Origin: Escherichia coli
GTDB lineage: Bacteria; Pseudomonadota; Gammaproteobacteria; Enterobacterales; Enterobacteriaceae
DNA length: 64,000 nt
Reading direction: 5' to 3' (one strand)
Assembly (NCBI RefSeq): GCF_003334765.1
Contig: NZ_QOWT01000013.1
Shown piece after piece: positions 24,746 to 28,826 of the stretch. The position numbers were made by a program, and so were the translations under genes. The number at the start of each line of letters is the position of its first letter. Position 1 is the stretch's first letter. A model generated the notes under the pieces. That model made no database searches. It was not told where the DNA came from and saw only the letters and a program-made list of their open reading frames with translations.

Positions 24746-27358
24746 TCAAGCCAGTGCTTTAGTTATCTTCTCGTACAGATCGCCAGAGAGATTTTCCAGC
24801 CCTTTCAACTGTTCCAGCGCCGCGCGCATTTTCTCCTGACGTTTGGCATCGTAACGTTTCAGGCGAATCAGCGGTTCAATCAGACGTGAAGCCACCTGCG
24901 GGTTACGGCTGTTGAGGTCGGTAAGCATTTCCACCAGGAACAGGTAACCGCTGCCATCTTCGGCATGGAACGCTGCCGGATTGCTGCCCGCAAACGCGCC
25001 AATCAACGAACGAATACGGTTCGGGTTGCTCATGGTAAATGAGCGATGCTGCAACAGGCCGCGCACCGTCTCCAGCACATTCGCCGCCGGGCTGGTGGCT
25101 TGCAGGATAAACCATTTATCCATCACCAGACCGTTCTGATGCCACTTGTCGTCGTACTCCTGCATCAGCGCGTCACGGCAAGGCAGCTGTGCGGCAACCG
25201 CCGCAGAAAGCGCCGCCAGCGCATCAGTCATATTGTTTGCTTCGTGGAACTGCTTGCTCACCAGCACATCAGCCAGATGCGTTTCACCAAAAGCGAGGAA
25301 ACGCAGGCAGGCATTACGCAGAGTGCGTTTTGCAATATCTTCATGCTCAACACGGTACTCGCTCTGGTAATTCGCGTTGTAAATAGCCAGTAGCTCATCC
25401 GCCAGTTCAGTCGCCAGAGTACGAGTGAGTGCTTCGCGTACTTCGGCAATAGCAATCGGGTCGATGATATCGAACAATTCAGCCATTTCATTGACAGAAG
25501 GCAGCGTCAGGATTTCTGCCGCCAGCGCTGGATCAATCTTCTCATCAAGCAGTACCGCGCGGAAAGCATCAGCCACATGCACCGGCAGAGACAGCGGCTG
25601 ACCTTGCTGATGACGCGCGACGTTCAGCTTGATGTAGGTTGCCAGCAAACTTTGCGCCGCATCCCAGCGGGAGAAATCATTACGCGCATGACGCATCAGG
25701 AAGGTCAGTTGCTGATCGCTCCACTTATATTCCAGTTTCACTGGCGCAGAGAATTCGCACAGCAGCGCAGGCACCGGCTGGAAGTAGACATTATCAAAGA
25801 CAAAGGTCTGTTCCGCCTGAGTGACGTTCAGCACGGAATTCACCGGATGACCGCCTTTCTGCAACGGGATCACTTTGCCTTCGTTATCATACAGTTCGAT
25901 GGCAAACGGAATATGCAGCGGCTGTTTTTCTGCCTGATCCGGCGTGGCTGGCGTGCGCTGGCTGATGGTCAGGGTGTACTGCTCGGTTTCCGGATTGTAG
26001 TCGTCTTTGACGGTCACAATCGGTGTACCGGACTGGCTGTACCAACGGCGGAAATGGGAGAGATCGACATTCGACGCATCTTCCATCGCCTGCACAAAGT
26101 CGTCACAGGTCGCTGCACTACCATCATGACGCTCGAAATAAAGCTGCATCCCTTTCTGGAAGTTTTCTTCGCCAAGCAGGGTGTGGATCATGCGAATCAC
26201 TTCCGCGCCCTTCTCGTAAACGGTCAGGGTGTAGAAGTTGTTCATCTCAATGACCATATCCGGGCGGATCGGGTGCGCCATCGGGCTGGCGTCTTCTGCA
26301 AACTGCAATCCGCGCATGGTGCGTACATTATTGATGCGGTTAACTGCGCGGGAACCAAGGTCAGAGCTGAACTCCTGATCGCGGAAGACGGTTAAACCTT
26401 CTTTCAGGCTGAGCTGGAACCAGTCGCGACAGGTCACTCGGTTACCGGTCCAGTTATGGAAATATTCATGGCCGATAACGCGTTCAATATCGAGGTAATC
26501 TTTGTCGGTGGCGGTGTCGGTGCGGGCCAGCACATATTTGGAGTTAAAGATATTCAGCCCCTTATTCTCCATTGCGCCCATATTGAAGAAATCCACCGCG
26601 ACGATCATATAGATGTCGAGGTCATACTCCAGGCCAAAGCGTTCTTCATCCCATTTCATGGAGTTTTTCAGCGAGGTCATCGCCCACGGCGCGCGATCAA
26701 GGTTGCCGCGATCGACGTACAGCTCCAGTGCTACTTCGCGACCAGAACGCGTGGTAAAGGTATCGCGCAGTACATCAAAGTCGCCTGCCACCAGCGCAAA
26801 CAGGTAGCACGGTTTCGGGAACGGGTCCTGCCACTGTACCCAATGGCGTCCGTTTTCCAGTTCGCCTTGCGCAACGCGGTTACCATTGGAAAGCAGGAAG
26901 GGATATTTGATTTTATCGGCAATAATTTTGGTGGTAAAACGCGCCAGCACGTCCGGGCGGTCGAGATAATACGTAATATGGCGGAAACCTTCGGCTTCAC
27001 ACTGGGTGCAAAGCGCATCGCCTGACTGATAAAGCCCTTCCAGCGCGGTATTCGCCGCCGGGCTTATTTCATTAATGATCTTAAGCGTAAAACGCTCCGG
27101 CAAATTACTGATAACCAGTGCGCCCTCTTCTTCTTTCCAGGCGGTCCACGGCTCATCATTAATATGAACAGAAACCAGTTTGAGGTCTTCGCCGTTGAGA
27201 CGAAGGGGAGCATCTGATGCACCATGACGGACAGCCTGGCTGACCGCGGTAACGACCGTCTTTTGCGCGTCGAGGTCAAAGGTCAAGTCAATATCAGTAA
27301 TCTGGTAATCCGGCGCACGATAATCGTGACGGTATTTGGCTTGTGGCTGTTGAGTCAT
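24746..27358 (-). CDS. pepN: Aminopeptidase N (PepN, 870 aa)
   Basis: Translation MTQQPQAKYRHDYRAPDYQITDIDLTFDLDAQKTVVTAVSQ... includes the zinc motif region HEYFHNWTGNRVTCRDWFQLSLKEG; recognised as PepN. Confidence 0.92.
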   Translation of the reverse strand: MTQQPQAKYRHDYRAPDYQITDIDLTFDLDAQKTVVTAVSQAVRHGASDAPLRLNGEDLKLVSVHINDEPWTAWKEEEGALVISNLPERFTLKIINEISPAANTALEGLYQSGDALCTQCEAEGFRHITYYLDRPDVLARFTTKIIADKIKYPFLLSNGNRVAQGELENGRHWVQWQDPFPKPCYLFALVAGDFDVLRDTFTTRSGREVALELYVDRGNLDRAPWAMTSLKNSMKWDEERFGLEYDLDIYMIVAVDFFNMGAMENKGLNIFNSKYVLARTDTATDKDYLDIERVIGHEYFHNWTGNRVTCRDWFQLSLKEGLTVFRDQEFSSDLGSRAVNRINNVRTMRGLQFAEDASPMAHPIRPDMVIEMNNFYTLTVYEKGAEVIRMIHTLLGEENFQKGMQLYFERHDGSAATCDDFVQAMEDASNVDLSHFRRWYSQSGTPIVTVKDDYNPETEQYTLTISQRTPATPDQAEKQPLHIPFAIELYDNEGKVIPLQKGGHPVNSVLNVTQAEQTFVFDNVYFQPVPALLCEFSAPVKLEYKWSDQQLTFLMRHARNDFSRWDAAQSLLATYIKLNVARHQQGQPLSLPVHVADAFRAVLLDEKIDPALAAEILTLPSVNEMAELFDIIDPIAIAEVREALTRTLATELADELLAIYNANYQSEYRVEHEDIAKRTLRNACLRFLAFGETHLADVLVSKQFHEANNMTDALAALSAAVAAQLPCRDALMQEYDDKWHQNGLVMDKWFILQATSPAANVLETVRGLLQHRSFTMSNPNRIRSLIGAFAGSNPAAFHAEDGSGYLFLVEMLTDLNSRNPQVASRLIEPLIRLKRYDAKRQEKMRAALEQLKGLENLSGDLYEKITKALA

Positions 27359-27576
27359 AAATAACCTTTAGCATCTTTTATAGAGTCTGGTGTTCAGTCT
27401 ATTCCTGTTGCGTAAATCGCGCTATGCAGAATCTTCATCTTTTCAGGTACAAACGCCTTTATTGCTACATTTTTATAACATACACCGCGTAATGCCATCG
27501 ACCAGAAAGGTGGCATATGGTGTGATCGGGGTTCAATAAATTGCGAAACAAGGTATACTCCAGCAGTTCCTGAAGA

Positions 27577-27594
27577 TGTTTATTGTACTAAACG
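27577..27594 (+). promoter_or_regulatory. NadR operator of pncB (TGTTTA-N6-TAAACG palindrome), with a -10-like TATACT at 27553-27558
   Basis: TGTTTATTGTACTAAACG is a near-perfect TGTTTA/TAAACA inverted repeat 30-47 bp upstream of the pncB ATG. pncB is a known NadR-repressed gene. Confidence 0.6.
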
Positions 27595-27623
27595 CTCCTG
27601 TACGAGGACGCTACTGCGCACCT

Positions 27624-28826
27624 ATGACACAATTCGCTTCTCCTGTTCTGCACTCGTTGCTGGATACAGATGCTTATAAGTTGCATATGCAGCAAGCCGT
27701 GTTTCATCACTATTACGATGTGCATGTCGCGGCGGAGTTTCGTTGCCGAGGTGACGATCTGCTGGGTATTTATGCCGATGCTATTCGTGAACAGGTTCAG
27801 GCGATGCAGCACCTGCGCCTGCAGGATGATGAATATCAGTGGCTTTCTGCCCTGCCTTTCTTTAAGGCCGACTATCTTAACTGGTTACGCGAGTTACGCT
27901 TTAACCCGGAACAAGTCACCGTGTCCAACGATAATGGCAAGCTGGATATTCGTTTAAGCGGCCCGTGGCGTGAAGTCATCCTCTGGGAAGTTCCTTTGCT
28001 GGCGGTTATCAGTGAAATGGTACATCGCTATCGCTCACCGCAGGCCGACGTTGCGCAAGCCCTCGACACGCTGGAAAGCAAATTAGTCGACTTCTCGGCG
28101 TTAACCGCCGGTCTTGATATGTCGCGCTTCCATCTGATGGATTTTGGCACCCGTCGCCGTTTTTCTCGCGAAGTACAAGAAACCATCGTTAAGCGTCTGC
28201 AACAGGAATCCTGGTTTGTGGGCACCAGCAACTACGATCTGGCGCGTCGGCTTTCCCTCACGCCGATGGGAACACAGGCACACGAATGGTTCCAGGCACA
28301 TCAGCAAATCAGCCCGGATCTAGCCAACAGCCAGCGAGCTGCACTTGCTGCCTGGCTGGAAGAGTATCCCGACCAACTTGGCATTGCATTAACCGACTGC
28401 ATCACTATGGATGCTTTCCTGCGTGATTTCGGTGTCGAGTTCGCTAGTCGGTATCAGGGCCTGCGTCATGACTCTGGCGACCCGGTTGAATGGGGTGAAA
28501 AAGCCATTGCACATTATGAAAAGCTGGGAATTGATCCACAGAGTAAAACGCTGGTTTTCTCTGACAATCTGGATTTACGCAAAGCGGTTGAGCTATACCG
28601 CCACTTCTCTTCCCGCGTGCAATTAAGTTTTGGTATTGGGACTCGCCTGACCTGCGATATCCCCCAGGTAAAACCCCTGAATATTGTCATTAAGTTGGTA
28701 GAGTGTAACGGTAAACCGGTGGCGAAACTTTCTGACAGCCCTGGCAAAACTATCTGCCATGATAAAGCGTTTGTTCGGGCGCTGCGCAAAGCGTTCGACC
28801 TTCCGCATATTAAAAAAGCCAGTTAA
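27624..28826 (+). CDS. pncB: Nicotinate phosphoribosyltransferase PncB (400 aa)
   Basis: Translation from the ATG at 27624 begins [39 protein letters not shown].... The track ORF starts at 27576, inside the putative NadR box, which supports the downstream start. Confidence 0.9.

Follow-up and report, generated by a model that had tools for sequence, protein, structure and literature searches.

Nicotinate phosphoribosyltransferase, the product of pncB, is an enzyme of the NAD salvage pathway. The E. coli gene was reportedly sequenced and characterized by Wubbolts et al. in the Journal of Biological Chemistry in 1990, and N-terminal sequencing of the Salmonella protein by Vinitsky et al. in the Journal of Bacteriology in 1991 is said to have found the mature protein to run from Thr-2 of MTQFASP.... 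The consensus of the binding site of NadR (NadI), or NAD box, is TGTTTA-N6-TAAACA (PMC2330245). In two publications on the regulon, pncB is placed among the NadR-repressed genes of E. coli and Salmonella, and its membership of the regulon is given as "in several enterobacterial genomes" (PMC5343134, PMC12421817). NAD boxes are found at nadB, nadA-pnuC, and pncB of the Enterobacterales, and the site described here is the pncB member of that set, with consensus, regulon, and organism group all alike. The 400-aa start and the NadR box of pncB are both already known and the RefSeq annotation is already correct, so that little is at stake scientifically. The practical value of the case is to illustrate the "longest ORF" trap: some public records, a minority, still have the wrong start.

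The window, by which we mean the whole 64-kb stretch of DNA that was analyzed, is the pepN–pncB–asnS region of E. coli, asnS coming after pncB in the list of open reading frames (ORFs). Over 601 bases around the finding, 5426 of 5426 complete E. coli genomes match at 95–100% identity and have pepN and pncB annotated there. The protein encoded from 27624 is identical to E. coli PncB (b0931, NP_415451.1, 400 aa), and the RefSeq pncB start of K-12 MG1655 is the base equivalent to 27624 in both NZ_CP032667.1 and NC_000913.3, the gene occupying 989154–990356 (complement) in the latter. The NAPRTase domains PF04095 and PF17767 are present on all relatives. We consider it very probable that this segment is the promoter leader of pncB, with a NadR operator at 27577–27594 and translation from the ATG at 27624 to give the 400-aa enzyme. 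The features to which the text refers are the following.

24746–27358, minus strand: pepN, divergent from pncB (ORF list)
27532–27537, plus strand: TTCAAT, weak −35-like hexamer, 3/6 of TTGACA, 16-bp spacer to the −10; putative assignment
27545–27550, plus strand: GAAACA, NadR-like half-site between the −35 and −10; TAAACA in most other genera
27554–27559, plus strand: TATACT, −10 hexamer, 5/6 of TATAAT, at −12 to −7 of the transcription start site (TSS)
27566, plus strand: pncB TSS (G), giving a 58-nt 5′ UTR (Kim et al. 2012)
27574, minus strand: weak antisense TSS assigned to pepN, 5 reads, 5′ UTR of 216 nt (PMC3415461)
27576–27578, plus strand: in-frame ATG opening the 416-aa ORF, its TG being the first two bases of the operator
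27576–28826, plus strand: longest ORF, 416 aa (ORF list)
27577–27594, no strand assigned: predicted NadR operator (NAD box) TGTTTATTGTACTAAACG, with arms TGTTTA and TAAACG around the spacer TTGTAC; +12 to +29 of the transcript
27595–27623, plus strand: conserved 3′ part of the leader, containing GAGGA (27604–27608) 15 nt before the start codon
27624–28826, plus strand: pncB CDS, nicotinate phosphoribosyltransferase, 1203 nt, 400 aa, with start codon ATG at 27624–27626

The comparison set comprised 80 Enterobacteriaceae pncB loci, one genome per species at 82–98% protein identity, which with the window make 81. The hexamer TATACT is invariant in all 81 and ends 6 nt before the mapped TSS; an earlier note on this DNA had recognized it as the −10 element, correctly as to its identity, but one base out as to its position, 27553–27558 reading GTATAC. 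The −35-like TTCAAT sits within a conserved upstream block, GTGTGATCGGGGTTCAATAAAT, which is kept in most of the 81 loci. Judged as a sigma-70 promoter, the segment has a −10 close to TATAAT but no TTGACA-like −35 at 16–18 bp, and a consensus promoter scanner reported no sigma-70 site in 27300–27750 because the −35 is poor. A block conserved in most genera, TTATGGTGTGATCGGGGTTCAATAAAT (27515–27540), extends from upstream of the −35 region across it and contains TGTGA. A CRP site at TGTGATCGGGGTTCAA (27521–27536) was considered and rejected on reading, its right half scoring 2/5 and its centre at −37.5 fitting neither class I nor class II.

Transcription of the locus in MG1655 was mapped by Kim et al. 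(2012, PLoS Genet; PMC3415461, supplementary file 2), who determined primary 5′ ends by 5′ RACE-seq enriched with terminator exonuclease. They report the pncB TSS at NC_000913.2 989637 on the minus strand, with 180 reads, a 5′ UTR of 58 nt, and an upstream sequence ending in AAGGTATACTCCAGCAG. The K-12 leader is identical to that of the window, and this TSS therefore corresponds to window position 27566; TSS mapping had been named in the earlier note as the check on a predicted mRNA start around 27565, which was one base off. Relative to 27566, the two in-frame ATG codons at 27576 and 27624 lie at +11 and +59, respectively. The pncB TSS comes from this single dataset, no pncB entry having been found in the supplements of the other published TSS maps examined.

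The palindrome at 27577–27594 is an 18-bp inverted repeat that begins 47 nt before the pncB start codon, inside the leader. It had been called a near-perfect NadR-type operator from the letters alone, and it agrees with the published consensus at 11 of 12 positions (PMC2330245). When at most one mismatch to TGTTTA-N6-TAAACA is allowed, the 64-kb window contains this match and no other, where shuffles predict 0.16; at two or fewer mismatches, the window holds seven matches against 2.4 expected, all but the pncB box having two mismatches. This uniqueness in the window is, alone, suggestive, being modest and not decisive. A repeat finder with a 6-nt seed did not report the palindrome because its exact arms are only 5 nt long (GTTTA/TAAAC).

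The same operator is found 47 or 46 nt before the pncB ATG in 54 of the 80 other species (55 of 81 with the window), across many genera. The box in these relatives is TGTTTATTGTACTAAACG, and the occasional changes are confined to the N6 spacer. The stretch between the −10 and the box, on the other hand, varies in both sequence and length (17 nt in most loci, range 7 to 20 nt) while the box stays constant, which argues that the box is conserved for its own sake. At four loci of the Enterobacter cloacae complex (L023, L024, L025, and L029), 7 nt separate TATACT from the operator versus 17 nt in E. coli; the operator-to-promoter distance is therefore flexible and the operator-to-ATG distance fixed. 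The box at these four loci would begin at about +1/+2. A box at −47/−46 is absent from 26 of the 81 sequences, in agreement with the description of pncB as a regulon member in several enterobacterial genomes, and NadR regulation from the leader position is predicted not to be universal in the Enterobacteriaceae.

The motif is also present at other genes of the K-12 regulon. Upstream of nadA there is a NAD box, TGTTTAGCATATAAAACA, with one mismatch, and upstream of nadB a box, TGTTTAGTAAATTAAACA, with none, together with a weaker second site. Relative to the mapped nadA TSS, the box of this gene spans about −54 to −37 and overlaps the −35 region; since it is upstream of the TSS, the motif would act as DNA rather than as RNA. 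The two NadR-like boxes at nadB (L084:423–440 and 497–514) are 74 bp apart, and the perfect one spans −24 to −7 from the ATG, hence lying over the ribosome-binding region.

These comparisons bear on the possibility that the palindrome is not a NadR site at all but a chance match or an RNA hairpin in the leader. Such a reading can draw on the 16 of 100 window shuffles that yield one match at no more than one mismatch, and on the centroid fold of the leader, which pairs GUUU with AAAC. However, the hairpin is A-U rich and weak (centroid −3.7 kcal/mol), and the leader as a whole is less stably folded than its shuffles. A chance match is further opposed by the identity of the 18-mer across many genera while its spacer to the −10 ranges from 7 to 20 nt, by the occurrence of the same consensus upstream of nadA and nadB, at nadA outside the transcript, and by the literature, which puts pncB in the NadR regulon. 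We regard this reading as most unlikely, and predict that NadR binds the 18-bp palindrome as the repressor site of the pncB leader, a site that has already been described.

A NadR-like half-site lies upstream of the operator, at 27545–27550. It is present as GAAACA or TAAACA in 55 of 55 sequences having the downstream operator and in none of the 26 without it. This half-site may be an auxiliary or relic half-operator, and the co-occurrence could reflect shared phylogeny. Five Klebsiella/Raoultella loci (L048, L052, L053, L055, and L060), as well as a Trabulsiella locus (L037), have no leader operator. At about −156 from the ATG in these loci, the block homologous to the E. coli −35 region (the window 18-mer at 27533–27550) reads TGTTCAATATATTAAACT, which matches the consensus at 10/12 with N6 spacing; in L055 and L060, the two inspected, an insertion of ~60 nt separates it from TATACT. 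This block may be a differently placed NadR site in Klebsiella/Raoultella. In Enterobacter sp. Ag1, pncB is preceded at a distance of 197 nt by a perfect box, TGTTTAGTACTCTAAACA (L073:1304–1321), well removed from the conserved −10, and the upstream neighbor at this locus is a 406-aa ORF on the same strand in place of pepN.

Kim et al. also list the weak antisense start, at NC_000913.2 989629 on the plus strand (PMC3415461), and its conversion to 27574 on the minus strand was checked against the printed sequence. The −10 of this TSS would be TACAAT, made by the operator spacer on the minus strand, and NadR might also occlude this minor pepN promoter. The antisense start and its 216-nt 5′ UTR assigned to pepN could be taken to mean that the operator mainly controls this divergent promoter and that repression of pncB is secondary. 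This is scarcely credible given that the start has 5 reads versus 180 for pncB (PMC3415461), that the distance from box to pncB ATG is fixed across genera, including at loci without pepN as upstream neighbor, and that pepN is not named as a regulon member in the two publications on the NadR regulon (PMC5343134, PMC12421817). The operator is thus best read as that of pncB.

The longest ORF through pncB does begin at 27576, as the earlier note stated before arguing from the operator and −10 element that the shorter start is the real one. Its conclusion holds, but neither the operator nor the TSS suffices to exclude the long ORF, because the ATG at 27576 is still transcribed (+11) and operators can overlap coding sequence. 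The long ORF is excluded by a frame-breaking indel, by loss of the upstream ATG, and by the lack of a codon-phase pattern. The ATG at 27624 and the MTQFASP... that follows it are conserved in all 81 sequences, and this codon is also the RefSeq start. The upstream codon, in contrast, is ATG in only 5 of 81, namely Intestinirhabdus and four Escherichia sequences, of which the window is one. Citrobacter, Salmonella, Enterobacter, and relatives have TTG at this position, immediately preceded by a stop codon. In 20 species with an identical box, a 1-nt indel (caccATG versus cacctATG) shifts the upstream codon out of frame, and in one species (L036) there is an in-frame stop inside the "extension." Column variability at the three codon phases is 0.039/0.018/0.044 over the 48-nt extension versus 0.059/0.030/0.248 over the first 300 nt of the CDS; the extension is equally constrained at all three phases and so resembles regulatory or leader sequence, not codons. 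It has neither the conserved start and frame nor the codon-like substitution of an N-terminal extension.

Protein-level comparisons agree with the shorter start. The structures 3os4, 1yir, 4hl7, 2im5, 1vlp, and 1ybe in the PDB align to the 416-aa ORF only from residues 17–24, chain residue 1 of the Yersinia pestis structure 3os4 aligning to residue 17. A collection of 15 billion proteins does not contain the exact 416-aa sequence, and the exact 400-aa sequence belongs to a cluster of 5048 members, of which the listed full-length members are all 400 aa. Among the published N-terminomics and translation initiation site (TIS) supplements examined, neither TQFASPV nor MFIVLNAP was found and there was no pncB entry. 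The long forms in databases are a minority, comprising P0016 (417 aa, E. albertii, 124 members) and P0027, P0030, and P0031 (416 aa), with N-termini of (M)MFIVLNAP or LFIVLNAP; the K. pneumoniae gene model KPN_00967 is 1239 nt, and some of the other database entries of 414–433 aa are C-terminal frameshift variants. The longer-start records (416–417 aa in some Escherichia and Enterobacter-like sequences, and KPN_00967) are an annotation artefact.

Translation of the 416-aa ORF from 27576, whether it gave the principal product or only a minor extended proteoform peculiar to Escherichia, would have the operator overlap codons 1–7. The ATG at 27576 does lie inside the mapped transcript, in frame and with no stop, and the long-form entries (P0016, P0027/P0030/P0031) follow it. 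Within Escherichia the 48 nt differ by few substitutions, CCT/CCC and CGA/AGA, and these are also synonymous in the long frame, although as small-number evidence they argue only weakly for it. Against translation from 27576 stand the restriction of the ATG to Escherichia and one other genus, the broken frame in 20 species and the L036 stop, a third-phase variability of 0.044 compared with 0.248 in the CDS, and the lack of any match to residues 1–16 among homologues of solved structure. The 10 nt of mRNA preceding 27576, which are its entire leader, have no Shine–Dalgarno (SD)-like sequence or anti-SD complementarity, and the 400-aa form is that of RefSeq and of the great majority of database entries. 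We find a translated 416-aa form very unlikely; on the comparative evidence, the pncB protein is predicted to begin at ATG 27624 and to have 400 aa, the ATG at 27576 not being its start.

The 3′ part of the leader is also conserved. Its last ~35 nt (27590–27623; AACGCTCC..GAGGA[C/T]GC..GCGCACC) are kept in 81 of 81 loci, also in genera without the NadR box, and GAGGA[C/T]G is present in all 81, always 14–15 nt before the ATG. The AGGACG that had been put forward as the ribosome-binding site is present at 27605–27610 and its GAGGA core is invariant, but GAGGA ends 15 nt from the ATG at 27624, outside the 5–10 nt of a canonical SD, and is not a textbook ribosome-binding site. Its duplex with the 16S 3′ end (anti-SD) is −5.9 kcal/mol, and the last 15 nt before the ATG hold nothing SD-like and nothing closer that is purine rich. 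In 67 of the 81 sequences there is an ATG within GAGGATG, at about −16/−15 from the pncB ATG, where E. coli has ACG (27608–27610). At 14-nt spacing this ATG is in frame and would add five codons (MLLRT-MTQF); at 15-nt spacing it lies in a different frame and begins a short ORF that overlaps the start of pncB.

A conserved RNA structure in the leader was considered and rejected. Rfam gave no match for the leader, its fold is weaker than that of shuffled sequence (z = +1.68), RNAalifold gave −2.3 kcal/mol, and the leader alignment contains no covariation. Nor was support found for a 3-bp hairpin that, by forming between GAGGA and the AUG, would bring the SD closer to the start: 41 of 500 and 500 of 500 shuffles reached the observed values in its two registers. 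Initiation at a weak-SD start would be consistent with a leader that is open and unstructured. That the invariant ~35 nt (AACGCUCC...GAGGA[C/U]GC...GCGCACC-AUG) constitute an undescribed translational control element for pncB seems improbable to us, a judgment shared with a lesser variant in which the TAAACA half-site gives NadR a second functional contact and has co-evolved with the main operator. The control element could be a ribosome site of the long-spacing or standby type, an upstream initiation codon that competes with the start, or the target of an sRNA or protein.

We infer that pncB would be transcribed from 27566 by a promoter with a strong, invariant −10 (TATACT) and a poor −35. 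When NAD is plentiful, NadR, the NAD-responsive repressor of the Enterobacterales, would occupy the 18-bp palindrome and lower pncB transcription. From its position at +12 to +29, NadR would most likely clash with RNA polymerase at the downstream edge of the initiation complex, or block promoter escape. The ATG at 27576 would exist only because an A happens to precede the TG of the operator in Escherichia, and the 16-codon "extension" would be untranslated leader, conserved as DNA or RNA and not as protein.

The locus illustrates how a regulatory palindrome that starts with TG makes a spurious in-frame ATG or TTG. A frame-breaking indel and the absence of codon-phase relaxation together make a comparative test that settles such start-codon cases without experiments.

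In comparison with the other NAD boxes, nothing of substance differs at pncB, although the position of the box relative to the TSS varies. The pncB box is downstream of the TSS, whereas that of nadA lies upstream at about −54 to −37 and that of nadB abuts the start codon. Placement just downstream of the TSS is also known from repressors of the lac O1 type, O1 being centered at +11. The pncB operator likewise occupies the initially transcribed region and, by an analogy of position only, would be expected to repress through interference with RNA polymerase binding or escape.
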